64,000 nucleotides of DNA from positions 74,264-138,263 of the forward strand of contig JAJZVA010000006.1 in the NCBI GenBank assembly GCA_021845905.1, written 5' to 3'. Both the position numbers and the translations under genes were made by a program. Source of the DNA: Pseudomonadota bacterium (lineage in GTDB: Bacteria; Pseudomonadota; Alphaproteobacteria; Micavibrionales; UBA2020). Below, in pieces: positions 3,806 to 37,713 of the stretch; the stretch's first letter is position 1, and each line of letters starts with the position of its first letter. A model generated the notes under the pieces. The model did no database searches. It saw only the letters and a program-made list of their open reading frames with translations, and was not told the DNA's origin.

Positions 3806-3860
3806 TGGTGGCCCTGACCGGAATCGAACCGGTACGCCCGAAGGCTCACGATTTTAAGTC
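3806..3860 (-). tRNA. displaced 3' part of the resident tRNA-Leu(UAA) (anticodon loop to CCA)
   Basis: Minus strand reads GACTTAAAATCGTG-AGCCTTCGGGCGT-ACCGGTTCGATTCCGGT-CAGGGCC-A-CCA; TCGTG and CAGGGCC are complementary to CACGA and GGCCCTG of the 5' part at 51164-51204. Confidence 0.85.
3850..3860. repeat. att core copy 1 (gattttaagtc)
   Basis: Identical 11-mer at 3850-3860, 8341-8351 and 51164-51174; equals anticodon loop CTTAAAA plus flanking bases. Confidence 0.85.
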
Positions 3861-3918
3861 CTCTCATGATAGTCCTTACACATTGAATTTATTATACAAT
3901 TCACCATCAAAAAGTCAA

Positions 3919-4243: not shown

Positions 4244-4684
4244 TTGTTGAACCAGTATATCCGCCAGTATGCGGAATTGCAGGTCAGGCAGGAAGAGGAA
4301 GCCCGCAAAATCGAAGCCAACAGGCAGTTCTATTCCATCATCATGAATATGAGCTACGCCCTCAACGGCGTTCCGCTCTGGCCTGTCACCGTCATGTCGC
4401 CACCGCCGGAAAAACGCCTTGACGAAAAGGCGTTCACAGCGACATTGCGCCAGAGAAGCAACAGCGAATTGCTTTCCACCGTCACGCGGCGATACGTCAG
4501 GCCGAAAATCGACCCGCCGATGGCGACGGTCAACCTGCGCACAAGCGTCCTTGAGGTCAAAGAAATCCTCCGCCGTGCGGGGTTACAGCCCGATGGAGGG
4601 AAATCCACCTTCGACCCGAAACAGAAAATCAAGGTAACGACGCCACCACCCAAGGCGTCTGCACGGTTCAACGCGAGGAGATAG
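4244..4684 (+). CDS. hypothetical protein, paralog of 36777..37130
   Basis: Shared block FTATLRQRSNSELL...ATVNLRTSVLEVKEILRR vs FTEAAYESRLQKKSNVELL...ATVALRQDVLQVKEPLRR; start uncertain (TTG 4244 or ATG 4343). Confidence 0.55.
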   Translation: MLNQYIRQYAELQVRQEEEARKIEANRQFYSIIMNMSYALNGVPLWPVTVMSPPPEKRLDEKAFTATLRQRSNSELLSTVTRRYVRPKIDPPMATVNLRTSVLEVKEILRRAGLQPDGGKSTFDPKQKIKVTTPPPKASARFNARR

Positions 4685-4687
4685 CGC

Positions 4688-5020
4688 ATGGCATGGACAC
4701 AATCAGGCGAATTCGTGGAATCCGACGTTGTGGAATGGACGGAAGCCATATGGCCTCCCAACCGTTCCCGCCGCCGGAAGAAATCCCGCCCGTGGGGAAA
4801 ACAAAAGGTCACGGCGCAAATTACAGCCATAGACGGCGATTTTGTGAAACTCACCGTCTTGCGCTCCGCTATCGTCGAAAACACTATCGGCTCGGCATTA
4901 AAACTCCACAAGGTCGGCACAACCATTACCAAGAAACGCCAAACCCTCCTGCGCGGCGAACCGGAAAGGCTCTTGTGGTCGGAAGAGGATGTACGAAAGG
5001 TACTTCTCCATCCCCAATAA
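4688..5020 (+). CDS. hypothetical protein, paralog of 41041..41520
   Basis: GAGGAG RBS; shares VVEWTE/VIRWTE, ...TITKKRQTLLRGEPERLLWSEEDVR vs TTITRGGAERLLWSDESAR with the large-element protein. Confidence 0.6.
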   Translation: MAWTQSGEFVESDVVEWTEAIWPPNRSRRRKKSRPWGKQKVTAQITAIDGDFVKLTVLRSAIVENTIGSALKLHKVGTTITKKRQTLLRGEPERLLWSEEDVRKVLLHPQ

Positions 5021-6662: not shown

Positions 6663-6979
6663 TGGTGCAGGCGGGGGGACTTGAACCCCCACGGGATTGC
6701 TCCCCACGGATTTTCATACCACTTCGGCTTTCGCCGCCACCGTCCGGTGTTCGTGGTCTGGACTATACCTTCGCCATACGGTTTGGATTTCGGCGTTCGC
6801 CTCATCTTCCGCTTAGACGCTGCCCGTCTAGTCTCTACACCTTCCCCTGTTCAGGGGCTTGGCTCGGGATTGCCATGTGAAAGGTTTCCCCGAGTTTGGG
6901 CAGTTCTGCTCCTCGGGTTTCCCACGGGGGCACTCAATTTCGTTCAAGTCCGTTGCGTATACCGTTCCGCCACGCCTGC
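6663..6979 (-). tRNA. tRNA-Leu(UAA) interrupted by a group I intron (exons 6979-6946 and 6714-6663)
   Basis: 5' exon GCAGGCG-TG-GCGGAACGGTATACGC-A-ACGGA-CTT; 3' exon AAAA-TCCGT-GGGGAGCAATCCCGT-GGGGGTTCAAGTCCCCC-CGCCTGC-A-CCA; all stems complementary; spliced length 86 nt. Confidence 0.85.
6715..6945 (-). ncRNA. group I intron (231 nt, no ORF) between U34 and A35
   Basis: Core blocks GGGGAAACC, GGCAATCCCGAGCCAAGCC, GGAAGGTGTAGAGACTAGACGGGCAGC, AAGGTATAGTCCAG, terminal G before AAAATCCGT; resembles cyanobacterial/plastid tRNA-Leu intron (from memory). Confidence 0.8.
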
Positions 6980-7004
6980 TTAATGAACTGGAATTGATTA
7001 TACT

Positions 7005-8207
7005 CTACAAATCTTCATCTTCAAGAAGCGGTTTTTTGGCCTTTTTGCCCTTTTTCTTGCGCCGCGTATTGATGGCGGCGGCATCAAGGCTGGTTTTGAT
7101 GTGCGAGGCGTAGTAATTTTCAATCATTTCCACGCTCGTCCGGCAGTTTTTGGCGATTTGATAAATATCCGCCCCTTCCATGAGGCGTAGGCAGATATAG
7201 GTATGGCGCAGACTGTAGGCCGTGCGCCTGCTCCCTTCCCTGTCGAATTTGAAATCCAACTCATTCAGGATGCGGTTGAACATTTCCCGATGTCCTTTGG
7301 GGAAAAGCCTGTCGGTCGGCTTGGGCTTTGCGTTCATTCTCAGCCTGTCCCTCAGGCGTTTGAAAGGAATGACCGCGCCTGCGGTGCTTTTACAATAACC
7401 GACACCACGCTTGCCGCGTACTTCGATTTCAAGGATTGTCTCGCCCGAGTCCTCGTCCTCGACAATGGTTACGTCCCGAAACTCAAGCCGTGAGGCTTCA
7501 TCGGGACGCAGGCCAGTATTGGCCATGAACAGCACATAGTCGTGCAACTGTGCTGACTCCCAAACCCAGCGTTTGCGCTTGGGTTTTTCCGCGCGTTCGC
7601 GCGTCGCCTGATAAAGGGTTTTATATTCCTCTGGTGAAAACCATGCGCGATGCGAGAGTTTTCCAGTTGTTTTATACGGTTCTGAAAGGTCAGGCAGGTG
7701 TTTCAACCAATCATGGCGCAAGGCTGTTTTCAGCACTTGCCGCAAGGTGACGATTTCTTGGTGCATCGTATTCCGCGCAGGCGGCTTGCCGTTGCGCTCC
7801 ATGCCTGTTTTACGTCGATGGATGCGGTATTCCTGCAAGCGTCCTGCGGTGATTTGAGAAAGCCCCATATCTCCGAAGAAAGGCAACAGGTGGACGGCCA
7901 GACGTTGTTCGTGTCCCTTCACGTATACCTTGTTCCGGTTACCCTCGGTGATAATGGGATATTCTTTCAGGAATTGCTCGGCGGCCTCGTTGAAAGTCTT
8001 CTCCTCGACAAGCTCGCCGCGCTTGTGCTTGCCCCGCAGTTCCAGATACCAGTCCTCGGCAAAGTCCTTGGCTTTGCCAAGGCTCTCCTCATGGGTCGTA
8101 ATGCGGAAGTTTTTCTCATTAAGGAAAGCGGAACACTGCCAATAGCGGCTGTCGTCGCGCTTGTAAACGTGGATACGTCCGTCAAAAATCGTGTGGCTCT
8201 CGGTCAT
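7005..8207 (-). CDS. tyrosine recombinase/integrase
   Basis: FMANTGLRPDEA (Arg box), AYSLRHTYICLRL (HxxR), NCRTSVEMIENYY (Tyr); stop is 25 nt from the tRNA 5' end. Confidence 0.9.
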   Translation of the reverse strand: MTESHTIFDGRIHVYKRDDSRYWQCSAFLNEKNFRITTHEESLGKAKDFAEDWYLELRGKHKRGELVEEKTFNEAAEQFLKEYPIITEGNRNKVYVKGHEQRLAVHLLPFFGDMGLSQITAGRLQEYRIHRRKTGMERNGKPPARNTMHQEIVTLRQVLKTALRHDWLKHLPDLSEPYKTTGKLSHRAWFSPEEYKTLYQATRERAEKPKRKRWVWESAQLHDYVLFMANTGLRPDEASRLEFRDVTIVEDEDSGETILEIEVRGKRGVGYCKSTAGAVIPFKRLRDRLRMNAKPKPTDRLFPKGHREMFNRILNELDFKFDREGSRRTAYSLRHTYICLRLMEGADIYQIAKNCRTSVEMIENYYASHIKTSLDAAAINTRRKKKGKKAKKPLLEDEDL

Positions 8208-8243: not shown

Positions 8244-8340
8244 TACTGTGAAAGTGAAAATTCGTGGTTTATGTCATCTTCAATTATACTAACTAATTGA
8301 AAATAAAGTCTTAATTTCCGCTAAGACCTTATAATATCAC

Positions 8341-8402
8341 GATTTTAAGTCCTGTATATGATTTTATAAGCTATTGATTTTATTGACTATTATAGGATTT
8401 TA
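8341..8402. repeat. att core copy 2 followed by a GATTTTA ladder
   Basis: gattttaagtc at 8341-8351; GATTTTA recurs at 8341, 8360, 8376, 8396; 8392-8407 ataggattttaccgtg resembles junction ataggattttaagtcgtg at 51161. Confidence 0.6.
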
Positions 8403-8403
8403 C

Positions 8404-8430
8404 CGTGCTAATGTGTTAGCCAATGTGCTA
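8404..8430 (+). repeat. arm-type repeats (C/T)GTGCTA (large element, distal end)
   Basis: cgtgcta 8404-8410, tgtgtta 8412-8418, tgtgcta 8424-8430; matching tgtgcta at 51093 and 51104. Confidence 0.55.
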
Positions 8431-8740
8431 ATTGCTATGTTTCCGCTCTCCCAAGGAGCTTGCCCAACGGGTGAAAAAGCACCGGATGCGGCGTCCGCGA
8501 TGTGTAAGAGTAAGCTACTGTAATAGCTACATAATTCTAATAATCGGAGAGCGCCGTGTTAGCCCTGTGCTGATTTTTGCGCTAGCAATCCAAAAACTGC
8601 GGCTAGGTACCTATCGAATGGGGTTACTGACGCCGGTCCGCCTGGCCCATGGGGAGCATCATTCCGCTAGTCGCCACTTGCCCCACCCCCGCCGATCTTC
8701 TGCGCGGCACCGTTGACACGCTAAGGATATCTATTTTGCA

Positions 8741-8787
8741 TTTTGATGCACAAAACTAGGCAATATCCCTTGTTTTGATGCATAAAC
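8741..8787. promoter_or_regulatory. two operator-like palindromes sharing TTTTGATGCA
   Basis: TTTTGATGCACAAAA (8741-8755) and GTTTTGATGCATAAAC (8772-8787). Confidence 0.3.
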
Positions 8788-8794
8788 TGTTGCG

Positions 8795-8878
8795 GACGGC
8801 CAAGCCAAGCAGAACCTGCGCGTCAGCGTCACGCGAGGCAAGCGTCTTACAACCATTTTGAGGCCGTCGTCACGGTAG
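8795..8878 (+). pseudogene. orphan 3' fragment of a UvrD-like helicase gene (inverted duplicate of the gajB-like 3' end)
   Basis: 8800-8861 is a perfect reverse complement of 14137-14198; translates DGQAKQNLRVSVTRGKRLTTIL vs DDQAKQNLRVSVTRGKRLTTIL in ORF 14093..15910. Confidence 0.8.
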
Positions 8879-8893
8879 TTGAACACGCCTCCG

Positions 8894-10135
8894 TCACGCA
8901 ATCAGGGACGCGGCTGCCTCGGCTTGTTCGGTCAGGTAGTGACGGAGTTCGGCGAGCAATGCGCGTTCCGTGGGACTTACACCTGCGAGTAGATCGTCAG
9001 CCTCTTCGATCGCCTTAGGAAGGGTCAGCCAGGGCACGGTCCCGTCCCCAACCATGAGACGGCGGGCAATGGCGATCTCGTAATCACGGCGGGCGGCATG
9101 GGGCATGACATACGCCGCCTCGACGAATACGAGACGCTGGCCGAGCGCCCGCAGGCGCCCATCGCCGAGCCGGCCGATCAGCGGCGGGCGGTGGTGCCAT
9201 TCCAGATCGTGAAACCGGTCAAGCAGCGCCTGATCGTCATTGCCGGTGAAGCCGTCATAAATCTGCTCCTCGACATGGGGCGACGGCTCTTTTTCTTCGC
9301 GCGTCCGGCCAAAGGCGGCGATAAGGCGCGCGGCCAGATTATCATCGGACAGCGCGGCGAAATCGTCCGGGTCCTGCGAGAGGTCGAAGACCAGCATTTC
9401 AGAGCCGTTGTCCGGGTTCATGCCGATGCCGGTGACGAACCACGAGTATCCCTTGCCGTAGAAAAAATCTGTGAGCACGAAGACGTCCTCGTCGAGCGCG
9501 AAATCCGCGACCGCCGCCTTCTGGGCAAAGCGCACGAAATTCGACCAGTGCTCCGGCACGCGCTCGGCGATCAGGCGACACATATGGATGGTCGCCTCCA
9601 CATCGCCCATCGCATCGTGCGCGGCGCTGTGATCGAAGCCGTTGGCAGGCGCGAGCCGGTCGAGCTTGAAGACGGGCCTGCCGCGATCATCGAGCGGGAT
9701 GCTCAGGGTGTTTGGCGCGAACCGTGCGACTGCCTGAATCATCCGCAGGCTGTCGGTGCGGCAATTTCCGTTCGTATTGGTCAGGTAGGGTGCGTGCAGG
9801 GTCTTATACAGCGCCTGGCGCAACAGGTGCTCGTCAAAGCCGAGCGAGTTATGCCCGATGAATATCGCGGGCGACCATTCGGCCATCTTCGCCCTGATCG
9901 CGCGCACCATCCGGTAGTGGCTCGGCAGCGCGGGATCGGTAAGCCGGCCGATGCCGATTCCCGTGACGCGCACCGCGCCAGGCGACGGCACGACGTAAGG
10001 TAAAAGGCGGGAGCGGATTTCAAAGCGGTCCAGCTCGTTCAGGTCGTGATCCGTCCTGATTGCGCCGAACTGGAGTATCTGGTCGAAGGCGGTGTTGGTG
10101 CCGGTCGTCTCGGTATCATAAAACACGAAACTCAT
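8894..10135 (-). CDS. exodeoxyribonuclease I (SbcB)-like DEDDh exonuclease
   Basis: FYDTETTG, GHNSLGFDEHLL, HDAMGDVEAT DEDDh motifs; colinear with E. coli ExoI as recalled, somewhat shorter. Confidence 0.8.
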   Translation of the reverse strand: MSFVFYDTETTGTNTAFDQILQFGAIRTDHDLNELDRFEIRSRLLPYVVPSPGAVRVTGIGIGRLTDPALPSHYRMVRAIRAKMAEWSPAIFIGHNSLGFDEHLLRQALYKTLHAPYLTNTNGNCRTDSLRMIQAVARFAPNTLSIPLDDRGRPVFKLDRLAPANGFDHSAAHDAMGDVEATIHMCRLIAERVPEHWSNFVRFAQKAAVADFALDEDVFVLTDFFYGKGYSWFVTGIGMNPDNGSEMLVFDLSQDPDDFAALSDDNLAARLIAAFGRTREEKEPSPHVEEQIYDGFTGNDDQALLDRFHDLEWHHRPPLIGRLGDGRLRALGQRLVFVEAAYVMPHAARRDYEIAIARRLMVGDGTVPWLTLPKAIEEADDLLAGVSPTERALLAELRHYLTEQAEAAASLIA

Positions 10136-10158
10136 CGCTGGCCCTCCGCCGGCTGGAA

Positions 10159-10686
10159 TTAGGCAAACAGATTTCCGAGCCTGAAGCGCATCGCCGCCGT
10201 GCTGACCTTGTATTCCTTGGCGAGCGCGCTGACGGCGCCCTCGTCGTCAATGTCGAATGACTGCCCCTGCAATGAACGCGCAAGAAATTCTTCGGGCATC
10301 AGAAGTTCGGCGGCGAAGAAATTGGCCTCGATCTCCATTTCATCGATTCCGGCCGAAGACACCGAGTCGCGCATCAGCATCGGGAAGCCCTTATCGACGT
10401 GGATTTGCTTTGTGATCTCGGCGCGGTGAAGCACGAGATGCCCGACTTCGTGGGCGAGCGTAAATCTTTGTCGGTTGGGATGATGAAGGGCGTTGACGCC
10501 GATTATCGGCGTGCCGTCCTTGACATAGACCATGCCCGAGAGTTCGTCGTCGAGCGGGGAAAACCGCAACTGCGCCTCAAGCCCCTTGGCGATACGCTCG
10601 ACCGGAACCGGGGCCGCCATGATGCCCTGCTCGTCCCGTAATTCCTTTACGCGCTTCTGGATCGCGCTGCGCCGTTTCGTATTCAT
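10159..10686 (-). CDS. ImmA/IrrE-family zinc metallopeptidase (CapP-like)
   Basis: HEVGHLVLH motif; 4-nt overlap with upstream XRE gene. Confidence 0.8.
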   Translation of the reverse strand: MNTKRRSAIQKRVKELRDEQGIMAAPVPVERIAKGLEAQLRFSPLDDELSGMVYVKDGTPIIGVNALHHPNRQRFTLAHEVGHLVLHRAEITKQIHVDKGFPMLMRDSVSSAGIDEMEIEANFFAAELLMPEEFLARSLQGQSFDIDDEGAVSALAKEYKVSTAAMRFRLGNLFA

Positions 10687-11060
10687 GCGTTCTCCCTCCC
10701 GTTGTTGGCGCCCTGCTGCATGGCATCGCCCATCAGGCTCAGGACCTCGCGGCGCTGTTTTTCGGTCAGCCCGTCTTCGGCAAGCGGCAGCGGTGACGAG
10801 GCGCCTGCCTTCGGTGCGCGCGCCTGCGGCGCGAGCAGGAGCTGCGCCGGCGAATCGAGTTGCAGAGCCGACGCCAGCGCAAACAGGTGGTGGACAAGCA
10901 CCTGCTGCCGCCCCGCCTCAATATTGGCGAGCGAGGCGCGGGATATGCCGATCTGCTTTGCGAGCTGGTCCTGGGTCTGGCGCAGACTTTTGCGCAAGTC
11001 CCTGATTCGCGCTCCTAAACTTTGATAGATGTGGCCGGCTTCCATAGGTTTTTCTACCAT
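10683..11060 (-). CDS. XRE-family HTH regulator (CapH-like)
   Basis: LRQTQDQLAKQIGISRASLANIEAGRQ HTH; divergent from the Ubl operon. Confidence 0.8.
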   Translation of the reverse strand: MVEKPMEAGHIYQSLGARIRDLRKSLRQTQDQLAKQIGISRASLANIEAGRQQVLVHHLFALASALQLDSPAQLLLAPQARAPKAGASSPLPLAEDGLTEKQRREVLSLMGDAMQQGANNGRENA

Positions 11061-11092
11061 GCAAACGGAAGCGGCGTCAAGATCGCAAACAT

Positions 11093-11159
11093 AGACGTTT
11101 GCATTATAAACTTATTAAACGATTGCATTTTTGACATTTCCGGCGCGCTGTGGCATAAA
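11093..11159 (+). promoter_or_regulatory. promoter of the Ubl operon with adjacent direct-repeat operators
   Basis: TTGACA 11131-11136, 17-nt spacer, CATAAA 11154-11159; ACG(T/A)TTGCATT at 11095-11105 and 11119-11129. Confidence 0.5.
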
Positions 11160-11219
11160 GGAAGGGTCTGCGGGGCCGTCGGCGCCGCGCTTTCTGAAGT
11201 ACGGTGTAAGGAGATTCCG

Positions 11220-11519
11220 ATGGCGCACGAGCATCAACACGAGCATCAACACGAGCATGGACATGGTGGGCATGGCGGGGACGAAGTCACGCTTGAGGTT
11301 GGCACGCCCAAGGGGCTGTTCACTGGCACCTTCCCGAAAACAGCCAAGATTGAGGACGTGATCGCGGCGGCTGTCGAAGCCAAGGGCATCGACAGCGGCG
11401 AATCGCTAGAGCTTGTCTATAACGGCGATGTGCTGCAGCCGGTGCAGCGCACGCTCGTCAGTTTCGGCCTCGCCGGTACAGTGAAGCTCGAACTGGTTGC
11501 GACCGGCTCCGGGGTGTGA
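11220..11519 (+). CDS. bilA: ubiquitin-like beta-grasp protein with His-rich N-terminal tail
   Basis: AAGGAG RBS; MAHEHQHEHQHEHGHGGHGG then ~80-aa Ubl-sized domain ending LELVATGSGV; first gene of Ubl-E2-JAB-E1 operon. Confidence 0.7.
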   Translation: MAHEHQHEHQHEHGHGGHGGDEVTLEVGTPKGLFTGTFPKTAKIEDVIAAAVEAKGIDSGESLELVYNGDVLQPVQRTLVSFGLAGTVKLELVATGSGV

Positions 11520-11522
11520 GCG

Positions 11523-11966
11523 ATGGCCACCGCAGGCGAGCTGGTTTTCGAAGAGCAATTCGGTCACCTGCGGGAGAACGCGCAATCCCGCGGGTGGCCG
11601 CTGGAGCGGGCCTTCATCCTCGGCATGAAAGCCCGCGATGATTCGCAATACTGGCTGCTCGCCGATTGCAGCGACTACCCGGCCCTGCCGCCGGCATGGC
11701 ACTGGTACAACCCAGCGACGAGGCTGCTCGACCAGCCGGCCGATACGCCGAAGGGAGGGACGTTCTTTCACCCCTCCGGCCGAATTTGCGCGCCTTGGAA
11801 CCGTCTTGCCTATACCAAGGTCGATCCCAAGGGGCCTCATGGCGAGTGGGATCTCGCGAACTGGATCACGAATCCCAAGACCGGCAACTGCACCACGCTG
11901 TCGGCGATGGCGCTGCGAATTCATGTCGAGATGAAAAGCGCTCACTACCAGGGCCGGATGGGGTGA
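11523..11966 (+). CDS. bilB: E2-like (UBC-fold) conjugating enzyme
   Basis: FFHPSGRICAPWN resembles the HPN...C active-site loop of E2 enzymes; operon context. Confidence 0.7.
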   Translation: MATAGELVFEEQFGHLRENAQSRGWPLERAFILGMKARDDSQYWLLADCSDYPALPPAWHWYNPATRLLDQPADTPKGGTFFHPSGRICAPWNRLAYTKVDPKGPHGEWDLANWITNPKTGNCTTLSAMALRIHVEMKSAHYQGRMG

Positions 11967-11970
11967 GACG

Positions 11971-12492
11971 ATGCTGAATGCCCTCAAACGCCTGTTTGCA
12001 AAGAAGCCGCGCTACAAGCCGGGGCCGCCGCCCCCGCCGCGGCTCGTGATATCGCAAGGCTGCATCGATGCGCTTGCCGCGTGCCTTGCCCCGGAGATTC
12101 GCGACGGACAGGAAGGGATCGCCTACCTGCTCGGGCAAAGCGACGGTACGACCACGGTGGCGCTCGCCTCGATCCGCCCCGAGGCGCAGGTCACGCGCAG
12201 CAGCTTTGTCGTGAGCGCGTCGGCGATGGCGAAGGTCGTGCGCGCCGCCGTCGATCGCGGCCTGCAGGTGGTCGGACAGATTCACACCCATCCCGGCGAT
12301 GCCTATCACAGCGGCGGCGATGATGACGGCGCGCGGATTGCCTTCACCGGTTATGTATCGATCGTACTGCCCGATTACGGGCGTCACCTCCCCGCGCTGA
12401 CGCGCTCCGCCACCTATGTCTTTCAGGCGGGCAAGGGATTCGTGCCGCTCGGCGCCTCGAACATCGTTATCGTTCCGGGGAGGGTCGCGTGA
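11971..12492 (+). CDS. bilC: JAB/MPN+ metallopeptidase
   Basis: JAMM motif QIHTHPGDAYHSGGD with upstream Glu (EGIAYLLG). Confidence 0.8.
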   Translation: MLNALKRLFAKKPRYKPGPPPPPRLVISQGCIDALAACLAPEIRDGQEGIAYLLGQSDGTTTVALASIRPEAQVTRSSFVVSASAMAKVVRAAVDRGLQVVGQIHTHPGDAYHSGGDDDGARIAFTGYVSIVLPDYGRHLPALTRSATYVFQAGKGFVPLGASNIVIVPGRVA

Positions 12493-13820
12493 AGGATGAG
12501 GATTATTATGACGTGCGCGATGACCGGTTGTTTCGCTATCCCGACGCGCGGCGGCTTGACCAGTCGCGCTGGATTGCGATCCGCGCAGCTCCCGATTACC
12601 TGCGCAGCTATGCCGGCCAGGTCGCCCTGCTGACAGCGGCCAACCTGCTCGGCCGCATGGCGCGGCGGGTTGCGCTCGACATCCTGCCGACGGACATGGT
12701 CCAGCCCCTGCCCTGGGCGGGCGAAGACATCGTCGGCTTTGCTCTCGCGCAGATGCAGGCCGCCGATCCGCGCGGCGAATATCTGATCCGCCCCGCGCAT
12801 GATTCCGATCACATCGTGTTTCTTGGCGCGTCCGGCGCCCCGGTCGTGACGCATGGCGCCGGCTGGCTCGCCTATACCGGCCCTGCCCCGTCACCGCTTC
12901 CCGCCGACGACGCGGCGAACCCCATCGGCGCGGCGCTCGCGGTCATTGCCATGGCGGCGCAGCTTGCTGCACACGGTTTCGACGGGCCGCCGGCTGCGGT
13001 CATGCTCAACAGCTTTGACTGGACTCACGAGTTCGGCGCGCCATTGCCGGCGCTGCCCCTTGGCGCCGATCTCGGCGCGCTATGGGCGGTCGGCGCCGGT
13101 TCCGTCGGCACGGCGATCCTTTATTTCCTGACGCTGGCGACGCGCAATTTTTCCGCGCTGCTGTTCGATCGCGACAAGGTGAAACGCGAGAACATCACGC
13201 GCTCGCCGGTATTCGCCGATGAAGATATCAAAAGCGATAAGGCGCAAGTGCTGGAAGCCTATCTGAGACGCTGCGGGATAACGGACATGGCGCACGAGCC
13301 GGTGATGCTGCATGAATCGCGCAAATGGACCGACCGCGCGAGCGGAACGCCGGACCTCGTGATCGCGGCAGCCAACGAGCACAATGTCCGCCACCTGATA
13401 GAGTCCCTGTTGCCGCCGGTGCAGATTTACGGCACCACAGGCCGCAACTGGCAAGCTTCGGTCATCCGGCATGTGCCGATGGTCGATCCGTGCTCATGCT
13501 GCCTGTTCCCGGAAACCTCCTATACGCCGACCGGCTGCGCAACCGATCCCGAGGCAGCGCCTGCCGACGGTCAGCAGGTCGATGCCGCGCTGCCGCACCT
13601 TTCATTCGCCGCGGGCCTGATGGCCGCCGCGGAAATCCTCAAGCTGAGCCTGCCGGGCTACACAATGACGCCGAACCGCTCCCTGCTCTATACGAAGCCG
13701 GAGCTGCGGCTGGCGCGGGCCGGCGTGAAGCTGCGGCAGGGTTGCGTGTGCGGCGCGCGTAGCCGCGCCGTCCATGAGAAGATGATCGCGGGCAGCCGGT
13801 ACGCAGCGCTGTCGGGTTAG
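12489..13820 (+). CDS. bilD: E1-like ThiF/MoeB-family adenylating enzyme
   Basis: Rossmann GAGSVGTAILYFL...FDRDKV; Cys clusters DPCSCCLFPE and GCVCG; GTGA start/stop overlap with JAB gene. Confidence 0.75.
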   Translation: MKDEDYYDVRDDRLFRYPDARRLDQSRWIAIRAAPDYLRSYAGQVALLTAANLLGRMARRVALDILPTDMVQPLPWAGEDIVGFALAQMQAADPRGEYLIRPAHDSDHIVFLGASGAPVVTHGAGWLAYTGPAPSPLPADDAANPIGAALAVIAMAAQLAAHGFDGPPAAVMLNSFDWTHEFGAPLPALPLGADLGALWAVGAGSVGTAILYFLTLATRNFSALLFDRDKVKRENITRSPVFADEDIKSDKAQVLEAYLRRCGITDMAHEPVMLHESRKWTDRASGTPDLVIAAANEHNVRHLIESLLPPVQIYGTTGRNWQASVIRHVPMVDPCSCCLFPETSYTPTGCATDPEAAPADGQQVDAALPHLSFAAGLMAAAEILKLSLPGYTMTPNRSLLYTKPELRLARAGVKLRQGCVCGARSRAVHEKMIAGSRYAALSG

Positions 13821-13857
13821 CGGTCCGATAGGCTGGCATTGGCGCTAGGCCCCGATT

Positions 13858-13894
13858 CCTTGCAATTCCGGCGGCTAGCGCCGGAATTGCAAGG
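13858..13894. other. perfect 16-bp hairpin (5-nt loop)
   Basis: ccttgcaattccggcg-gctag-cgccggaattgcaagg; no flanking T-run on either strand. Confidence 0.7.
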
Positions 13895-13999
13895 ATGATA
13901 CCGCGCCAGAAAACTGAAGTAGTTCTTGCCCGCCTTGGCCAGTTTCCGACCGTGGCGCTGCTCGGGCCGCGGCAGGAGGGCAAAACCACGCTCGCCGAA
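13895..13999 (+). pseudogene. truncated 5' end of an AAA ATPase gene (DUF4143-associated type)
   Basis: MIPRQKTEVVLARLGQFPTVALLGPRQEGKTTLAE matches the usual N-terminus and Walker A of this family (memory); similarity ends after ~35 codons. Confidence 0.6.
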
Positions 14000-14092
14000 G
14001 GGCGAAGGAGTCGAGGTTATCGGTCTCAAGGAAATGGCGTCGCTTGTCGCGGGCTCCTAGAGCGGCCCATGGCGTCAGCGATGAAGTCGGTT

Positions 14093-15910
14093 TCAATTGT
14101 TTCCAGGAAGAAGGACGCAAGGGTCATTCTTCGGCGTCAAAATGGTTGTAAGACGCTTGCCTCGCGTGACGCTGACGCGCAGGTTCTGCTTGGCTTGGTC
14201 GTCTGCATGATCCCGTGAATTGAAGCGCACAATGCGGTCCGCGTTGTAGGGTGGCTGGCCCTTCCGTTTGATCGGCCAGCCCTCGAAAATAATAACTTCG
14301 TCGAATTGCTTACCTTTCGCTTTGTGCATGTTCATCACGATAACGCCGGACTCCGGCTTGACGTTTGTCGAAAAGTGCTCCCGGACGAAAGCCTGTCGCG
14401 TGATCGCCAGCGCATTGGAATAGCCGCCGTTGTCACGCCAATCCCGGGAAAGCTCCTGACGAAGTTGGGTCCCGCGCTCCAGGATACGGACGTTGCGAAC
14501 CTCATTCGCAATCTCATTCAATCTTTTGCAAGCTCCGTCCTGGAGGATGTGCCGCATGGCCAGCCAGTCGTTATCGGGGTCGCCCACAAGCACGAGCGCA
14601 CGTGTCTGGTCGTACACGGCGAGCATGCTGACGATGATGCTGTTCTTCCGCACGGCTTTGCCTGACGCATGACAAGTCAAAAGCTCTTCGTAGGCTTTTC
14701 GGATGCCCGCCGCCTCTTTCAGTGCTCCTTGCGTGGGTTCATCGCCGCCTTTGCCATGGAAGTAGTTGCACATGAGTTCGATGAACTGTTCAAAGTGATG
14801 GCGATCCACGGCAGGCTGCAACAGATGTGCGATAACTTCCGCCCCAAGGATTGCCGCCTCCATTTCGATGACCGCGGAATGCGGCACCTCAATCATCCCT
14901 GCCGGAGGTTGACGCAAGGCATCTGACACCAGGCGCGTCATCTTCTTTGTCGGGACGAGAATGGCCAGGGACCAGTCGGTGACGCCTTGGCTGACCAAGC
15001 GCCCGCGCGCGGCATAGGTCGTCGTAACTAGCTTTGTCATCGCTGGATCGGGAAAGGGGTCAAAGACATCGAACGCGATGCCCTTATACGTGTTCTGACG
15101 GAATTTCCCCGTAAGCAGGTCGTTGCCGAACATGCCGATCTCTGTCCCGGCGCTTCGGTGATTGTCTGTGCTCAGGTCTATCTCTGTTGGGGTGAACGTC
15201 TCTCGGAAATGGTGGAGACGCGCCGGGTCGGCACCAATCCAGTCATAAATGCGCTGTTCCGGGTCGGCGAGAGCAATCAGCCGGCAGAACGCGCCCAGCG
15301 CCTGAACGACCCGCCATTGCTGCGCATTCGTGTCCTGAAACTCGTCGAGGATGATGATCGGGTACATGGTCCCAATCAATCTGCGAATGCGATCGCTGCC
15401 GTGAAGGATTTCGCCGACATGGGGGGCATAGAGATCGAAGCACACAAGCCCCTCCGCGTTTGCGAGGCGGATGCGCTCTGTCTGCTCAGCGGCCTTCTTG
15501 GCCACCTTCTGCTCGTCGGAGAGGTTTCTGGCCGGGAAACCGGATCGCACCGCGGAGAGGGCGATCGCCTCGCCGGACGGCGTGAGGATACTGAGCCGCC
15601 GCGGCAGCCCGATGAGATAACCATGAGCCTTGAGGATACGCCAAAAGAAGGAATGGTAGGTCTCGACATCGATGAGCTGCTTCTGGGCACGCGGGATTTT
15701 CTGCTCATATTCGATAGCTTCTACCACACGCGAGACGGTGGCGCGTGCGAAGCTCAGAAACAGTATCTTCTGGCCGGGCCGAAGTTGATGCTCTGCCAAG
15801 TGGGCCGCCTTAAGAATGGAAACGGTTGTCTTTCCGGAACCCGGCCCTCCCGTGACAAGAAGGTGGCCATCGGCGTCCATCGCCTCAAGCTGCTTTTCAG
15901 TCAATTTCAT
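14093..15910 (-). CDS. gajB: UvrD/PcrA-like superfamily 1 helicase (GajB-like)
   Basis: LVTGGPGSGKTT Walker A, IILDEFQDT motif II; 14-nt overlap with upstream OLD-family gene. Confidence 0.8.
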   Translation of the reverse strand: MKLTEKQLEAMDADGHLLVTGGPGSGKTTVSILKAAHLAEHQLRPGQKILFLSFARATVSRVVEAIEYEQKIPRAQKQLIDVETYHSFFWRILKAHGYLIGLPRRLSILTPSGEAIALSAVRSGFPARNLSDEQKVAKKAAEQTERIRLANAEGLVCFDLYAPHVGEILHGSDRIRRLIGTMYPIIILDEFQDTNAQQWRVVQALGAFCRLIALADPEQRIYDWIGADPARLHHFRETFTPTEIDLSTDNHRSAGTEIGMFGNDLLTGKFRQNTYKGIAFDVFDPFPDPAMTKLVTTTYAARGRLVSQGVTDWSLAILVPTKKMTRLVSDALRQPPAGMIEVPHSAVIEMEAAILGAEVIAHLLQPAVDRHHFEQFIELMCNYFHGKGGDEPTQGALKEAAGIRKAYEELLTCHASGKAVRKNSIIVSMLAVYDQTRALVLVGDPDNDWLAMRHILQDGACKRLNEIANEVRNVRILERGTQLRQELSRDWRDNGGYSNALAITRQAFVREHFSTNVKPESGVIVMNMHKAKGKQFDEVIIFEGWPIKRKGQPPYNADRIVRFNSRDHADDQAKQNLRVSVTRGKRLTTILTPKNDPCVLLPGNN

Positions 15911-17768
15911 TTACACCGGCTCCCGGATCAGCGCCCGCAGCGACGGGTTCGACCGCCGCATTGATGGCGGCTGGGGCGGGTGTGCAGGCATCTTTCAACT
16001 GGACACACGCATTCCGAAGCCATTCGGGAATCTCGGACTCACTACATTGAGCCAGAAAGTCAGCGATAGCCCAATTTCCTTTGGCCCCTGCAAAATACTC
16101 CGAAAGCGCAACCGTGGCCTGCGCTCCAGGATCAGGGTACTTGGCCTTGAGGTGCGGAGGCCACGTGATGAGGTTCACGAACCGTTTTAGAGCCGCCTCG
16201 GTGGTGCCTTTCAGCACCATGGCCTCGAATCCTTTTTCCTCGTGCATCAACGACAACTCGACGTGGGCTTCAATCAGGGCCTTGTTCCCGTCCTCCTGCT
16301 TGTCGCAAATCGCAAAGGTGCGTTTTCCGAGGGCGCTATAAAACTGCGCCATGCCGGGGATGTTACTTTCGCTGCCGGCATCGACCGTGCAGATACCGAG
16401 TGCTTCAAGGGAGGAATAAACCTCCGGCTTTATCTCTGAAAGGCGACGGCATACCACCGGAAAGGCCGACGCCTCCGTAGCTCCTTCAGCAATGAGGATA
16501 CGGCGGGCGAGCAAACCTTCGCAGAAGCGGGTGCGGAATTCCTGCCGGTAGCGCTTGAGCTTCACGTTGTCGGGCAGCGCTATGATCTTGCGGGCGAGCA
16601 TCCCTTCTGTGTCACGCCCCAGAACGACGGTCTCCTCAAGGGCGAACTCCTCAAGCACGTATGGCGAATGCGACGTGAAGAGGGTTTGCGATGCCAGCTT
16701 CCGAACCTCGTGAACGATGCGCTTTTGGGCATAGGGCGGGATGGCCGTCTCCGGCTCTTCCATGGCAAAGATGACATTCTGCTTGTCTTCAGCGATTTGT
16801 GAGAGCATCGCCAGGACCAGCATGTTGATGGTGCCCGTCCCTTGTCGATAGAAGGGTGCGGCGTGATCGCCGTCTCCTGTGGCGATGAACGCCGTGATCA
16901 CCTTCCGCAAGTGCTCACGCGTTAAATTGGACACCTTAAGATGGGGCTTTACGCCCCATTCCTTTGGCACGTACTTCTTGAGCGCGACGCTGATGCTATC
17001 AAGTATCGGGGAAATACCAAGTTTCGGATCACTCGCAACCGAGATTCCAGACAGCGTTCCAAGTGTGTCCTCCCACATCTGCGGCCTGACTTCTTTGAGC
17101 CGCAGAATGATATCAAGCAGGCTGCCACGCTCTAAACTCAATGCGCGGGTGCCTGTCCGGAGGGAGCGGAGGTAAAGGAAGCCACATACCTGCTTGTGCC
17201 TCTTTGAGAACAGCTCTGGCGTGTCACCTTCCGTGAGACTGCGGGTAAAGAAGGTCCTGCCCTCGAAATCGTCCTCTTCCTCTTCGTACCAACCGTGGAA
17301 TGTGACGCGCAGCGCTTCGGTGATGGCGGCGCCGTCGACTCCCGCCGGGTTTGGTTCGTTGTAGAACTGGTCTGTCGCCGCGTCCCAAAACTCCGTGTAG
17401 TCGCCAAACTTTCCCTTCTGCTCGTCGGTAAGGTCCGCAACTGTCACCTCAATCTCGATTCTGGGAGCATCGGCCGCTACCTTGGTATCGTTGGCGGCGG
17501 GTTCGCCGTTATCATCAGCAGCGGGTTCAGCCGCTCCATCAGCCGGGGCCGCAACGGGCTTGACGGTATAATCACCTCTGAAAAAATCGTGCTCGTCGAT
17601 GGGTGGTTGGCGGTTGAGACGATCAGGCCCGAGCACCAGATCGAGTGCTTCGAGAATGGTCGTTTTGCCGGTGTTGTTATCGCCGATCAGTACCCCGTGC
17701 TTTGGTAACAACAGTGTTGTTGCCTTCACACCCCTGAAATTCTTGATGATGAGGCGACACGCTCTCAC
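15897..17768 (-). CDS. gajA: OLD-family ABC ATPase + TOPRIM nuclease (GajA-like)
   Basis: IIKNFRGVK...LIGDNNTGKTTILEAL N-terminus; C-terminal ILIAEGATEASAF TOPRIM-like; paired with UvrD helicase. Confidence 0.8.
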   Translation of the reverse strand: MRACRLIIKNFRGVKATTLLLPKHGVLIGDNNTGKTTILEALDLVLGPDRLNRQPPIDEHDFFRGDYTVKPVAAPADGAAEPAADDNGEPAANDTKVAADAPRIEIEVTVADLTDEQKGKFGDYTEFWDAATDQFYNEPNPAGVDGAAITEALRVTFHGWYEEEEDDFEGRTFFTRSLTEGDTPELFSKRHKQVCGFLYLRSLRTGTRALSLERGSLLDIILRLKEVRPQMWEDTLGTLSGISVASDPKLGISPILDSISVALKKYVPKEWGVKPHLKVSNLTREHLRKVITAFIATGDGDHAAPFYRQGTGTINMLVLAMLSQIAEDKQNVIFAMEEPETAIPPYAQKRIVHEVRKLASQTLFTSHSPYVLEEFALEETVVLGRDTEGMLARKIIALPDNVKLKRYRQEFRTRFCEGLLARRILIAEGATEASAFPVVCRRLSEIKPEVYSSLEALGICTVDAGSESNIPGMAQFYSALGKRTFAICDKQEDGNKALIEAHVELSLMHEEKGFEAMVLKGTTEAALKRFVNLITWPPHLKAKYPDPGAQATVALSEYFAGAKGNWAIADFLAQCSESEIPEWLRNACVQLKDACTPAPAAINAAVEPVAAGADPGAGVNEID

Positions 17769-17806
17769 ACTAAACTCCTTCTAATTGTTATGCTTACGGA
17801 GCGCCG

Positions 17807-20800
17807 TCACTCCTCCTCAAATCCTACCTTGCCGGTATCCAGCTTCAGGTCGCGCACATTCGCCCGCACGACATCGACAACATCGTCGGGATAGCCGGCG
17901 GGCGATGAGGCGTCGATCTCTAACGTCAGCTTTACCGTGGCTCCGTCGGCGCGGCTCAGCTCGAACAGGATTTCCTCGGCGATCTTGGCAACCTGGAGGC
18001 CCGCCTTATCAGGGTCCAGTGGAATCGAACCGTAGAAACGCCGCGGCTTCCCGGTTGTCGTTGCGGTTTTACCGGACTGATCGCCTACTCCCGTTGCCGT
18101 CGGACCGCCAGTGCGAGCGGAGGTTCCAGCACCTTCTGTCTTGCCAGTGGCTTCGCGTTCAGGCAATGCGCTGCGCCAGACCAGAATGCCGGTAGCGATA
18201 TTGCTGCCCAGACCGGCGGACCAGAGGGAAACGCGTTGGTATTCGCCGGACGCCTCGTCGAAGCCTTGGGCGAACGCCACGGGCGCCTCAATCTTGGCGA
18301 CAAGTTTTTCAATCGCCAGGGTGAGCGTGGCATCGTCCCGCAGGCGCGGCAGGTAGACATAAGAGGCGAACCAGTCGAGCAAAGTCGCAACCTCGATGTG
18401 CGGCTTGCTCTCTTCCCAGACCTTGCGCAACTCGGCCATGAGCGTGTCCGGCCCCAACTCATCGACGATGACGCTGTTGGCCTTGAGCTTGTCGTAAACG
18501 ACCTGGGCAATCGGCTTTCCCGGTGCCCGGTTGACAACCGAGGTATGCTCCAACTCGAAACCGCTGGCCGGACCTGTACCGTTGCCACCGTCCTGCGTGG
18601 GCACCGGATAGAGCACATGAGACCAGGTGCTGCGAATGCGCTGCGCGAGTCCTTCCGCGGATTGACGCATGCGGGCGTTGGCGTCTTCGATCTGCGCCTC
18701 GGTGAGGCCCTTCCTCATCTCCCTGTCTTCGACGATCGATTTCCAGGCAAGATACTTCCGGGCGATCTCGCGGCAGGTATCGAGTCCGCTCTCATCGGGG
18801 GCAACGAAAACCAGCGCGTTGCGAAACTTGCGCTGTCCGGTGCCGCGCCGTTGCAGCGTATCCGAAACGATGCGCTGCGCCGGGGTCCGTTCGGGACTCT
18901 TCAGGGCGTGTGGATATGTAGGCGGAACAATGAGAAGCGCGATGGCGCGCGCATCCTCCACGTCGATCAAGCTGTCGGGCGCGGCATGTACGCGGTGGAA
19001 ACTGCCCCTGTGGCTCTGCTCTTTGCGAAGAATAGAGATGATCTCAGCATCGGCGTCATCGGCGGCAACGTCGTTGGCGCGCTCGTCGGCAATCCGGTTA
19101 AGCGTCGGCTGCGTTGAAAACCAATAGCGGTCTCCTTCGCGGTAAAGATAGGCGGAGCGCTCCGACAGCTCGCGCAACGCATCGCCGAATATCGAAATCT
19201 GATCGCCGGGCTGCGCACAAGCGAGACGGAGCGAAGGCCCGGTCAAGCCGCCGCGCGACGATCCGCGATGGGGCGCGGTCGCAAGGAACACGGCCCGCGC
19301 GGCCCGCGTCACAGCGATGACATCGCCAAAGCGCTTACGCGAAGCCTCGATCTTGACCGGCAGGGCGAGTTCGCCATCGACCTCGCCCTGAAGGATTGGT
19401 CCATAAGAGCGGTCGAGCGGTTCCAAAATGGCCGTGCGCACCTTGTCTTCGGCCAGGGGTATCAGCCCGAGGTTAATCAAGGGCGCGGTGCTCTGCCCGC
19501 GCCATAGCGCATAGATGACGTTGGCCATGATCTTGAGAATACCGCGGGTGCGCTGAAATTTTTCCAGCGTGGACCAGTCCTCGGAAAAGCGCTTCAGCAG
19601 CTCCGGGTGGATCGGATAAGCGCGCTTCATCTCCTCACGATAGGCGGGCTCCTTCACTTCCGCGGGGAAGTCGGAAGCGTTGTCACGATAGAGCTTGCTG
19701 AAGGCTTGTATGGTCGCATCGCATGCTTTCTCGCCTTCCTCGTCGAGGGGCTGGAAGAGACGCCGTCGCACAATCTCGAAGGTCTCCATACCGCTCGCCG
19801 GGGTCCACGCGGATTGCACGCGGCCGAACAGTTTTTCGAGGCGGTGGAGAGCGGCAACGCCGCGTTCGTCGCCGACTTCCATGCCGGATTCCGGGAGCGA
19901 ACCAACGACCATGGCGCCAGGCACGGCCGCCGCGGCTTCCGTCAGCGATTGAATGAAAGCGTGGAAAGACTCGTTTTCCTCACCCCGGAGCTGCTTGGCG
20001 AAGGCAACCACTTCGTCAAGCAAAATGAGACAGGGCGAAGCGAGTTCCAGAATCTGGATGAGCTTCTCGGAGCCCGGATTGGTTCGACTGGCTTCGGAAT
20101 CGGCAATGTGGTCCACCGCGTCCCAACCACCGAGCTTGTAGGCGATGTAACCCCAGGGAGTGCGGATTTCCCGGCCATCGCTCGCATGCATGACCTCGCT
20201 CGGGCCTTTGTGCGTGCCGACGAAGACAGCGCGCTGGATCGTCGGCAGCGTCGAAACCCCGGCGGCGTCGAAGATGCTTTTCATGCCGTGCAGGATTTCA
20301 GGCTTGTATCCGGCTTGCGCCGCTCCCGCCAAGTGATAGAGGGCAAGCATGGTGTGGGTTTTGCCCCCGCCGAAATTGGTTTGCAGGCCAACCACGGGAT
20401 CGCCGCCTTTCTTCGCAAAGCGTTCAATCGCATCGCGCAGAACGCGGCTCAAGCCCTCGGTCAGATAGGTGATGCGGAAGAAGGCAAGCGGGTCGGTGTA
20501 TTCTTCCGAGCCGACGCCTTGGTCCACATGGGCGAGGTTCGCTGCAAATTCGGCGTCCGTAAAGCGCGCCTCCAGAACATCGGGATGGGGCTGGGCGACC
20601 TCGCGCCAGGGGCGGAGCTTCGCCGGCGGTGGCGGTTCGTCGAGCTGCCTCGCCCCCGCCGTCGCTTCGGCTGCCGCCTCAGGGCTTGCGCGTTTCTGGC
20701 CTTCGTACAATTTATCCACGATGGCGACCTGCTCTTTGGCGCCGATGGCATCGAGCAACTCGCGGATGGCGTCGAGATAACGAAGCGCCTCGCGATCCTG

Positions 20801-27575: not shown

Positions 27576-27808
27576 GCCTTCTTTCTCTCTGGCCAGATTT
27601 CGACACCCGCGGCAGGCCCCTTTGCCTGAAGCCGTTGCGACGAACCGCGTTCTTCGGCCGCGTCTTTGTATTCCGGCACGTAATCCCGCATGAACTCTCG
27701 GGTGACCTGCGCGTCGAGCAGCGTACCAGCCAGCTTCGCGGCATCCGCCACGGAATGCAGCCGGCTCAGCTCATGTGCAAATAGCTTGGCGTGGTATTCG
27801 GTTATCAA
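27572..27808 (-). CDS. small ORF; first ~35 codons look like the N-terminus of a different SNF2 helicase family
   Basis: MITEYHAKLFAHELSRLHSVADAAKLAGTLLDAQV then unrelated sequence; ATGA overlaps with both neighbours. Confidence 0.4.
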   Translation of the reverse strand: MITEYHAKLFAHELSRLHSVADAAKLAGTLLDAQVTREFMRDYVPEYKDAAEERGSSQRLQAKGPAAGVEIWPERKKA

Positions 27809-27999: not shown

Positions 28000-28193
28000 A
28001 TGCCACCCGGAATTGCCAACCGGGACAGTATAGGAAAAAAACTGGAAAATCCGAGAAAAAACTTACTTGAGTTCTGGGTCAGGCACGGACGCTTGAGGCA
28101 TGTTCGGGAATTGGACGTGCTTCGGGGAAACAAAGGAGTTATGGTATTCACTAATCAATTGCGTAAAGTATCAAAAAATGATACCTTGCGCAC

Positions 28194-35295: not shown

Positions 35296-35308
35296 GGAGG
35301 AAGTTGCG

Positions 35309-37659: not shown

Positions 37660-37713
37660 TCTCCTTGTGTTTGCTTACGCCCCGAAGGGACAGCGCAGCC
37701 AAGGCCGGGCGCG

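Follow-up and report, generated by a model that had tools for sequence, protein, structure and literature searches.

Integrases followed by an intron-bearing tRNA-Leu(UAA): a probable break-and-replace integration module on tandem elements of a Micavibrionales bacterium and in related loci of at least six phyla

The window analysed here is a stretch of 64,000 nucleotides (nt) from contig JAJZVA010000006.1 (forward strand, positions 74,264 to 138,263) of the GenBank assembly GCA_021845905.1, which belongs to the Micavibrionales lineage of Alphaproteobacteria. It contains two integrative elements arranged in tandem at one split tRNA-Leu(UAA) gene: an element of 4.5 kilobases (kb) with an AbiE system and a mobilisable defence island of about 43 kb. 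In each of them a tyrosine integrase gene is followed by a complete tRNA-Leu(UAA) gene interrupted by a group I intron. We consider it probable that the integrase and this cargo tRNA gene constitute the integration module of a "break-and-replace" element, which would disrupt the host tRNA gene and bring its substitute along. The features on which this reading is based are as follows (window coordinates).

6663..6979, minus strand: cargo tRNA-Leu(UAA) of the small element (exon 1 from 6979 to 6946, intron from 6945 to 6715, exon 2 from 6714 to 6663 including CCA)
7005..8207, minus strand: tyrosine-recombinase integrase of the small element, 400 amino acids (aa), with Pfam Phage_int_SAM_5 above the cut-off and a weak Phage_integrase match
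3806..3860, minus strand: 3' half of the host tRNA-Leu(UAA), from the core GACTTAAAATCGTGA to CCA, on the attR side of the small element
51164..51204, minus strand: 5' half of the host tRNA-Leu(UAA), GGCCCTGTGGCGGAACTGGTAGACGCACACGACTTAAAATC, followed directly by large-element DNA CTATGTAAAATAATA
3846..3862: attR copy of a 17-nt repeat (repeat search, family D18)
8337..8353: attL copy of the 17-nt repeat, where the right end of the large element meets the left end of the small one
49245..49558, minus strand: cargo tRNA-Leu(UAA) of the large element (ARAGORN intron mode; exons of 35 and 54 nt, intron of 225 nt)
49747..51069, minus strand: integrase of the large element, 440 aa, with Pfam Phage_int_SAM_3 and a Phage_integrase match below the cut-off
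8354..49244: body of the large element (Pfam, PADLOC and gene tables)

A preliminary description of this stretch, made from the letters alone, had proposed that a complete tRNA-Leu(UAA) gene with a group I intron follows the integrase gene of the small element. ARAGORN in its intron mode placed this gene at c[6663,6979] and agreed with the description in all details: exons of 34 and 52 nt give a mature tRNA of 86 nt with an encoded CCA and an intact cloverleaf, the 231-nt intron lies between positions 34 and 35 (U34/A35, gactt-intron-aaaat), and a 25-nt spacer (7004..6980) separates the integrase stop codon from tRNA position 1. The three group I core blocks and the terminal G that had been claimed for the insert are all present on the minus-strand reading of 6640-7030. 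With its default settings, which do not allow introns, ARAGORN detected no tRNA in the window, so that the intron mode is required. Comparison with the Rfam group I model gave a full-length Intron_gpI match (6750-6955, minus strand, model positions 1-253, 45.9 bits, E 1.9e-10), which is in favour of the proposed intron type and at the same time lies under the gathering score of 50; the intron is reported by Rfam in the E-value mode only, and the gathering threshold yields only the intron near 49 kb.

The small element is bounded by an exact 17-nt direct repeat, TCACGATTTTAAGTCCT (3846-3862 and 8337-8353, repeat family D18), which reads AGGACTTAAAATCGTGA on the minus strand and resembles the anticodon stem-loop of an intronless tRNA-Leu(UAA). 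The copy at 3846 runs on into a perfect tRNA 3' half (...GCCTTCGGGCGTACCGGTTCGATTCCGGTCAGGGCCACCA), and the host 5' half gives way to element DNA straight after GACTTAAAATC, so that on the minus strand the two elements, the large one (about 43 kb) before the small one (4.5 kb), stand between the host tRNA 5' half and its 3' half. Joined in silico at their shared core, the two halves form a canonical 85-nt intronless tRNA-Leu(UAA), which is accepted by ARAGORN. Element and host are identical over GACTTAAAATCGTGA in the small element (core of 15 nt) and over GACTTAAAATC in the large one (core of 11 nt), and since only 11-15 nt are common to both sites, the host gene is left as two dead halves. 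The element DNA past the core (TATTATAAGGTCTTAGCGG... in the small element, CTATGTAAAATAATA... in the large one) contains no T arm or acceptor strand, because of which the junctions cannot encode a tRNA; at either junction ARAGORN detected none, finding cargo genes only. The earlier claim that the target stays broken is thus borne out: the split of the host tRNA-Leu(UAA) lies in the anticodon loop, and neither junction rebuilds a tRNA.

Look-ups in public assemblies, made with the integrase and with the adjacent host protein of 123 aa, revealed three states of this site. One locus (L212) represents the empty site, with an intact intronless 85-nt tRNA-Leu(UAA) between the same flanks and with downstream sequence as in the window from 3805 onward. 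The small element alone occupies the same site in four loci (L002, L003, L211 and L213), where it is joined to the host 5' half (...CACGACTTAAAATCGTGA/TATTATAAGG...); in L002 the position of the attL repeat joins the host tRNA 5' half directly, and the whole 8354..49244 stretch is missing in L002 and L003. Two other loci (L001 and L004) match the arrangement of the window.

The second element repeats the module with its own sequences. The two window integrases are 57% identical (E 9e-173); the cargo tRNA of the large element lies 188 nt downstream of its integrase, is 89 nt long when mature, and its intron scores 54.2 bits with Intron_gpI, above gathering. The large and small cargo tRNAs are about 85% identical and differ in the acceptor, variable and T arms. 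The possibility that they are crossover hybrids of one gene was rejected, as each has a self-consistent acceptor stem; the true host tRNA halves are located apart from both of them. The proposal that a whole replacement gene travels with the integrase is strengthened by the recurrence of the pair on this second element and in dozens of genomes. Another intact tRNA-Leu(UAA), which the preliminary description had named as an observation that would speak against it, does exist in the window (49245-49558), but it is no threat to the interpretation because it is the cargo of the large element.

The model of the small-element integrase (AlphaFold2, mean predicted local distance difference test score, pLDDT, of 75) has a two-domain tyrosine-recombinase fold: Foldseek against the PDB matched it to Tn1549 Int, Cre, lambda Int, XerA and XerH (E 3e-8 to 1e-6, probability 1.00), while sequence searches of the PDB and NCBIfam gave no useful match. 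The SAM-like N-terminal domains of the two integrases exceed their Pfam cut-offs, and Phage_integrase scores 18.9 and 23.5 bits against a cut-off of 27.1. Residues R234, R334/H335 (in SLRHTY) and Y365/Y366 are invariant in the integrase alignment A2 and represent, by alignment alone, the candidate catalytic residues.

Homologues of the integrase number more than 7,000 at E < 1e-20; every one of the best 120 has an identity of 70% or more to it, and the named sources among these 120 span several phyla. Since only two relatives occur in IMG/VR, the family does not belong to phages. One genome was scanned per species, which gave 551 integrase relatives, and the 80 loci taken for analysis represent Alphaproteobacteria, Acidobacteriota, Planctomycetota, Binatia, Gemmatimonadota, Nitrospinales and others, at least six phyla. 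The search for other integrases with an intron-bearing tRNA gene at the 3' side, suggested in the preliminary description, had this outcome: an intron-bearing tRNA-Leu (intron of 200-270 nt) is located downstream of the integrase in 46 of the 80 loci, usually at a distance of 60-150 nt, with four of the copies cut by a contig end. An intronless tRNA-Leu occupies this position in 17 of the 80 (12 CAA and 5 UAA), and several loci (L064, L081, L065, L075 and L086 among them) are canonical in that the integrase has a whole tRNA upstream of it. Rfam scans at the gathering threshold, performed for 11 loci, reported no cargo tRNA or intron, even in L050 and L074, where nhmmer had found intron-bearing cargo.

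In most loci, a tRNA-Leu 5' half ends in the anticodon loop 130-150 nt before the integrase start and is followed by AT-rich element DNA. A broken UAA-type core located 130-210 nt before the integrase start is combined with intron-bearing cargo in 39 loci; the cargo of these loci is UAA wherever it is fully readable, and most of the cores lie within a recognisable host 5' half. A CAA-type broken core is combined with intronless CAA cargo in 10 loci. Host and cargo anticodons therefore agree, UAA with UAA and CAA with CAA, the sole mismatch being L074. In L050 the integrase has broken a host tRNA-Leu(CAA); the cargo (7277-7575) is likewise of the tRNA-Leu(CAA) type, contains a group I intron and has C instead of U at position -1 (GGACTC/.../AAAATCC), corresponding to the "Leu.3Cg" class, which is reported only from Proteobacteria (10.1101/2020.01.27.920355).

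Loci without cargo are mostly CAA-targeting (L022, L025, L041, L068 and L073), UAA-targeting ones being only L058 and L072. In L022 and L025 the last approximately 18 nt of the cargo tRNA remain (GGCCCTCCGCGCGCACCA) about 70 nt downstream of the integrase stop. The tRNA with the UAA anticodon also reads UUG, while the CAA tRNA cannot read UUA, which needs the UAA tRNA. The retention of cargo for UAA targets and its frequent loss for CAA targets fit UUA being readable by the UAA tRNA alone. This pattern is what would be expected from selection for the spare gene, and L022 and L025 fit its loss where the targeted tRNA-Leu(CAA) was dispensable. Viable integrants may need the cargo, for which there is indirect support: it is kept in nearly all UAA-targeting loci and lost in several CAA-targeting ones.

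The broken 5' halves of L007 (104-141) and L008 (5816-5854), which read GCAGGCGTGGCGGAACGGTATACGCA[A/G]CGGACTT, match exon 1 of the small-element cargo tRNA, exactly in L007 and with one base off in L008; this hints at the lineage from which the cargo exons may have been captured. In L039 (about 7480-7640), three spaced copies of GTTTCAATCCACGCCCGCGTGAAGCGGGCGAC downstream of a related integrase look like a CRISPR (clustered regularly interspaced short palindromic repeats) array located on that element or beside it.

The intron itself has conserved features. All 43 of 43 UAA-type cargo genes read GGACTT/intron...G/AAAATCC, that is, they retain U-1 and omega-G. In an alignment of 41 sequences (A3), the core blocks ATCCCGAGCCAAGC and GAAGGTGTAGAGACTAGACGGGC are invariant and the peripheral hairpins are variable; RNAalifold recovered from it the tRNA acceptor, D, anticodon, variable and T arms together with P1 and other intron helices. 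The U.G pair of P1 at the splice site is invariant (41/41, alignment columns 36/51), and in 38 of the 83 predicted pairs both partners vary while the pairing is retained. With a core invariant across several phyla, compensatory changes and an intact cloverleaf, the intron looks functional.

These data lead to the following picture, of which the integration part is shown by the sequences and the supply of tRNA is proposed. The target is the intronless host tRNA-Leu(UAA): the tyrosine integrase recombines its anticodon stem-loop with the att site of the element, which imitates this stem-loop over a short stretch (GA-CTTAAAA-TC), and precise excision restores the host gene. A complete tRNA-Leu(UAA) of foreign sequence sits with its conserved group I intron right after the integrase gene; its precursor, judging by its sequence, would self-splice and supply the UUA-decoding tRNA lost by the integrant.

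The strategy as such is known. Guerrero-Bustamante and Hatfull reported it in 2024 under the name of tRNA-dependent lysogeny for actinobacteriophages (Fionnbharth, Cluster L and others; PMC10865867), and a further case may be the Lj965 prophage of Lactobacillus johnsonii (PMC10865867). Hence the interpretation offered in the preliminary description stands as regards the broken target and the travelling replacement, with the correction that the strategy is not new (PMC10865867). The actinophages have in common with the elements studied here a tyrosine integrase, an attB overlapping the host tRNA gene, a short common core (about 10 base pairs in the phages) and a tRNA gene that is not rebuilt (PMC10865867). 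Unlike them, the elements described here are non-phage, one being an AbiE island of 4.5 kb and the other a defence island that is mobilisable or conjugative; their family is distributed over at least six mostly Gram-negative phyla, and their replacement gene follows the integrase gene directly, with a group I intron at the position that corresponds to the att core.

The elements also resemble canonical islands (Islander/TIGER, PMC4383910) in the tyrosine integrase with its anticodon-loop crossover, the displaced tRNA fragment at the far end and the tandem arrays at one tRNA gene. However, the attP of a canonical island supplies the whole 3' part of the tRNA and thereby restores the gene, which the elements considered here do not do. 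Some members of the same integrase family (L064 and L081) are still canonical. Islands that target tRNA genes with a crossover in the anticodon loop are reportedly part of a classification proposed by Williams in 2002.

As for the intron, it resembles the cyanobacterial and plastid tRNA-Leu(UAA) intron ("Leu.3Ug", 10.1101/2020.01.27.920355) in its site at U34/A35 (CUU/...g/AAAA), U-1 and omega-G. A preprint census of 2020 by Williams counted 5,292 bacterial tRNA genes that a group I intron splits, including Leu.3Ug as well as 72 cases of Leu.3Cg, these 72 all in Proteobacteria (10.1101/2020.01.27.920355); it is silent on any linkage to integrases (10.1101/2020.01.27.920355). Further points of likeness to the cyanobacterial and plastid intron are the lack of an open reading frame (ORF), the size of about 200-270 nt and the similar core blocks. 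The intron may be similar also to the Anabaena sequence. In contrast to the cyanobacterial intron, it resides here on integrative elements of non-cyanobacterial bacteria, and the exons travel with the element. The core variant GAAGGTGTAGAGACTAGACGGGC is invariant across phyla in the element introns. In the literature, mostly that outside subscription journals, we found no description of a module of integrase and intron-bearing tRNA-Leu, of a non-phage cross-phylum family or of an intron masking an att site.

Several observations weigh against the break-and-replace reading. Two spare copies coexist in the strain of the window, because of which each spare alone is redundant there. The tRNA-Leu(UAA) census covers the window, one part of the genome. 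The window's host genes seldom use TTA (3 of about 2,470 codons), because of which the essentiality of the tRNA is only an inference; a parallel for a tRNA-Leu(UAA) being less than essential is bldA in Streptomyces, and the host tRNA-Leu(UAA) may likewise be less than essential. Finally, the intron of the small element remains under the Rfam gathering cut-off (45.9 vs 50).

The question of what the intron is doing on the element can be answered in two ways. The crossover core comprises the anticodon loop and the adjoining stem bases, GA-CTYAAAA-(TC), and the intron cuts it at CTT/AAAA. Since the intron splits this core (GACTT/AAAATC), the spare tRNA presents no contiguous att site in DNA. A spare with the same anticodon would necessarily include the crossover core, about 1.4 kb from attP and in direct orientation; if it were unmasked, recombination between attP and the spare would delete the integrase gene, or related elements would break the spare. 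It is therefore possible, although we would not put it at an even chance, that shielding of the spare from the integrase is what the intron provides. A wider form of this idea, which we offer tentatively, is that the intron acts as a DNA-level mask against integration and against deletion of the integrase while the RNA matures normally, with the corollary that elements deliver intron-bearing genes across phyla.

The intronless relatives would reach the same protection through changed stem pairs beside the loop. All intron-bearing cargo genes retain the target-like GGA/.../TCC stem, and 15 of the 17 intronless ones have GG..TC, CA..TG, GT..AC or GC..GC next to the loop instead of GA. Counted by distinct anticodon arms, the loop-adjacent pairs are altered in 7 of 9 intronless and in 0 of 6 intron-bearing arms (Fisher test by hand, p about 0.006, relatedness not controlled). 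Also in favour of shielding is the entry point of the large element in the window, which was the hybrid att site and not the small element's spare tRNA. Against shielding it should be noted that the intronless cargo of L032 and L035 retains GA before the loop, and that the counts overstate independence because the compared sequences are related.

The other answer, which comes close to an even chance, is that the intron has no role in the element: it was captured from a donor gene that already had it, or it is a selfish passenger, so that replacement holds and masking does not. This is consistent with the existence and persistence of elements with intronless cargo, and with group I introns in tRNA-Leu having been counted in several phyla (10.1101/2020.01.27.920355). 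It is less easily reconciled with the alteration of the loop-adjacent stem pairs in nearly all intronless cargo and never in intron-bearing cargo, and with the location of the intron exactly within the crossover core, which, if unmasked, would expose the integrase gene to deletion.

The occurrence of the intron away from integrases bears on the same question. A metagenome scan for the intron core with GAAGGTGYAGAGACTMGACGGG gave at least 120 loci, 104 of them usable (cargo 5' end and at least 300 nt upstream). Among the matches listed, 22 of the 104 have this integrase directly upstream, 12 have a broken host 5' half 30-325 nt upstream and no integrase (about 45 nt in seven of them), 40 have neither integrase nor broken half within 2.2 kb, in 20 neither was seen with less than 1.7 kb of upstream sequence, and 10 have less than 300 nt of upstream sequence. 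The prevalence, among the matches listed, of loci with neither integrase nor broken half (40) over those with the integrase (22) speaks against shielding, as the intron may have come simply with the captured gene, and 40 of 104 likewise favours the passenger origin, as do three loci (L117, L130 and L195) that have one ordinary upstream gene in common. Neighbour-gene clustering of the listed metagenome intron loci without an adjacent integrase revealed no conserved context; L141 and L196 retain the C-terminus of the integrase only. Because many of the listed metagenome loci have no integrase, the intron-bearing gene is not confined to intact elements.

Some of these loci have an arrangement that we call fossil: the 5' half of a broken host tRNA-Leu(UAA) is separated by 30-45 nt from the intron-bearing tRNA-Leu that follows it, and there is no integrase. 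The following loci show it (also L097, L138, L155 and L203); each is oriented with the intron-bearing tRNA on the plus strand, and the coordinates are counted from the opposite end if the locus was reversed.

L126, about 4481-4890: fossil locus
L150, about 4860-5276: fossil locus
L133, about 3102-3463: fossil locus

L150 is one of the 12 loci with a broken half and no integrase; its downstream genes are ordinary-looking and, by eye, resemble those for alcohol dehydrogenase, fumarase and a mechanosensitive channel. It has the look of a fossil that has lost the element and retained the spare as the resident gene. On decay of an element the spare would remain as the only working copy, and the fossil loci suggest that an element-borne gene has permanently replaced the native tRNA gene. 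The transfer may have run from host to element or from element to host.

Returning to the break-and-replace reading as a whole, an improbable alternative is that the cargo tRNA is an accessory, serving the UUA-using low-GC genes of the element or countering tRNA-targeting defences, in a host that has another tRNA-Leu(UAA). AbiEii uses 5 TTA codons and the host genes rarely use TTA; the census was restricted to the window, and such roles have been proposed for phage tRNAs (PMC10865867, discussion). Yet an accessory would not be expected to follow the anticodon of the broken target from locus to locus, as the cargo does, or to be kept almost always with a UAA target and often lost with a dispensable CAA one, and the large, high-GC element carries a cargo tRNA too.

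That the intron-bearing gene is a decayed, non-functional relic is very improbable: the Rfam score of the small-element copy below gathering would agree with it, but the cloverleaf and CCA are intact, U-1 and omega-G are invariant, the core blocks are invariant in 41 sequences from several phyla, and 38 of 83 pairs are compensatory. Least credible of all is an ordinary tRNA-targeting island with the intron-bearing tRNA as the host's own attachment gene; integrases are indeed common beside tRNA genes, and the family has canonical members (L064, L081, L065, L075 and L086), but this tRNA lies downstream of the integrase, inside the direct repeats, and differs from the host gene in every arm, and L212 refutes such a reading, as the cargo tRNA is absent from it and a different, intronless tRNA-Leu(UAA) is intact.

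The remaining features of the small element and its ends are as follows.

4244..5020, plus strand: two small ORFs of 146 and 110 aa, called genes, no Pfam or NCBIfam match
5124-5711, plus strand: AbiEi antitoxin-like gene (PADLOC E 3e-77)
5650-6660, plus strand: AbiEii toxin gene (PADLOC E 1.6e-64; Pfam AbiEii E 5.5e-33)
3919-3927 and 3931-3939: two direct copies of CCGTGTAAG (repeat family D16), candidate arm-type integrase sites
6997..7024, minus strand: promoter-like TTGAAG-16-TATAAT, a consensus match only (10/12), overlapping the 3' end of the integrase gene

The AbiEi/AbiEii pair, to judge by these matches, is defence or addiction cargo. The promoter-like site stops 18 nt ahead of tRNA position 1 (1 site found against 0.4 expected). 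A third copy of CCGTGTAAG (8235-8243) adjoins the integrase start, so that copies are present at both ends of the small element, and nearly all related loci have similar YTTRCACA repeats upstream of their integrase. The large element has TTAGCACA/CTAGCACA repeats at its two ends (8390-8435 and 51095-51125). The terminal repeats are likely to be arm-type integrase sites that differ between the small and the large element.

The window has a mean G+C content of 59%; it falls to 47-56% at about 2,000-9,000, and most of the 1-kb windows outside this region are near 60%. The host tRNA is closely followed on its downstream side by another tRNA-Leu-like 3' remnant, which is decayed (...TCGGTCGATTCCGGTCAGCGCTACCA; 3690-3800, minus strand) and includes a 23-nt tandem duplication (GGCTCCGCYGCTGAATTTTAATT twice, 3719-3764); its part at about 3760-3805, which the short contig of L212 reaches, is also present at the empty site. 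The remnant is probably the scar of an older integration. The low-GC region 2400-3690 between the aldo-keto reductase genes and the tRNA remnants, with a gene for an ArsR-family regulator (2464-2874) and one for a presumed secreted protein of 204 aa rich in Pro, Gln and Tyr (3017-3631), may be what remains of an older island.

The body of the large element combines ExoI-like, helix-turn-helix (HTH)/M78, Bil-like, Gabija, Hma and IS110 transposase genes with transfer-type genes for a MobA relaxase, a VirD4/TraG coupling protein, ArdA and ParB. Its defence run spans 11022-27575, and no phage genes were identified on either element with Pfam and PADLOC. The following genes were located in the large element.

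8894-10135: ExoI-like gene, just outside the defence run
10159-11060: HTH/Peptidase_M78 pair, just outside the defence run
11971-12492: BilC-like gene of a Bil-like ThiF/JAB set, which also has two small ORFs
12489-13820: BilD-like gene of the same set
14093-15910: Gabija gajB
15897-17768: Gabija gajA
17807-21103: hmaC
21100-24057: hmaB
24054-27575: hmaA
31337-32464: IS110-family transposase
33207-34430: DUF535 protein, near the IS110 transposase
35165-36580: family 2 glycosyltransferase, near the IS110 transposase

With the presented analysis, break-and-replace integration is no longer restricted to a few clusters of actinophages. It now includes a very large family of integrases (over 7,000 homologues, at least 551 genome loci) that reside on non-phage islands of soil and water bacteria from many phyla. 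In practical terms, tRNA finders without an intron mode miss such genes and island finders that expect a restored tRNA mis-map such elements, while the integrase with its cargo tRNA could become a portable integration tool.

This analysis also joins two topics that have been studied separately, tRNA genes as integration sites and the group I intron of tRNA-Leu(UAA), whose patchy distribution and age have long been debated. It leads to testable ideas: that the intron has an adaptive role at the level of DNA, that the elements are a vehicle for its lateral spread, and that native tRNA genes are replaced by element-borne ones. The occurrence of the integrase-plus-tRNA package in at least six phyla suggests that it is one route of intron spread; if this is true, broad-host-range elements would represent a concrete lateral route for an intron that has no homing endonuclease.

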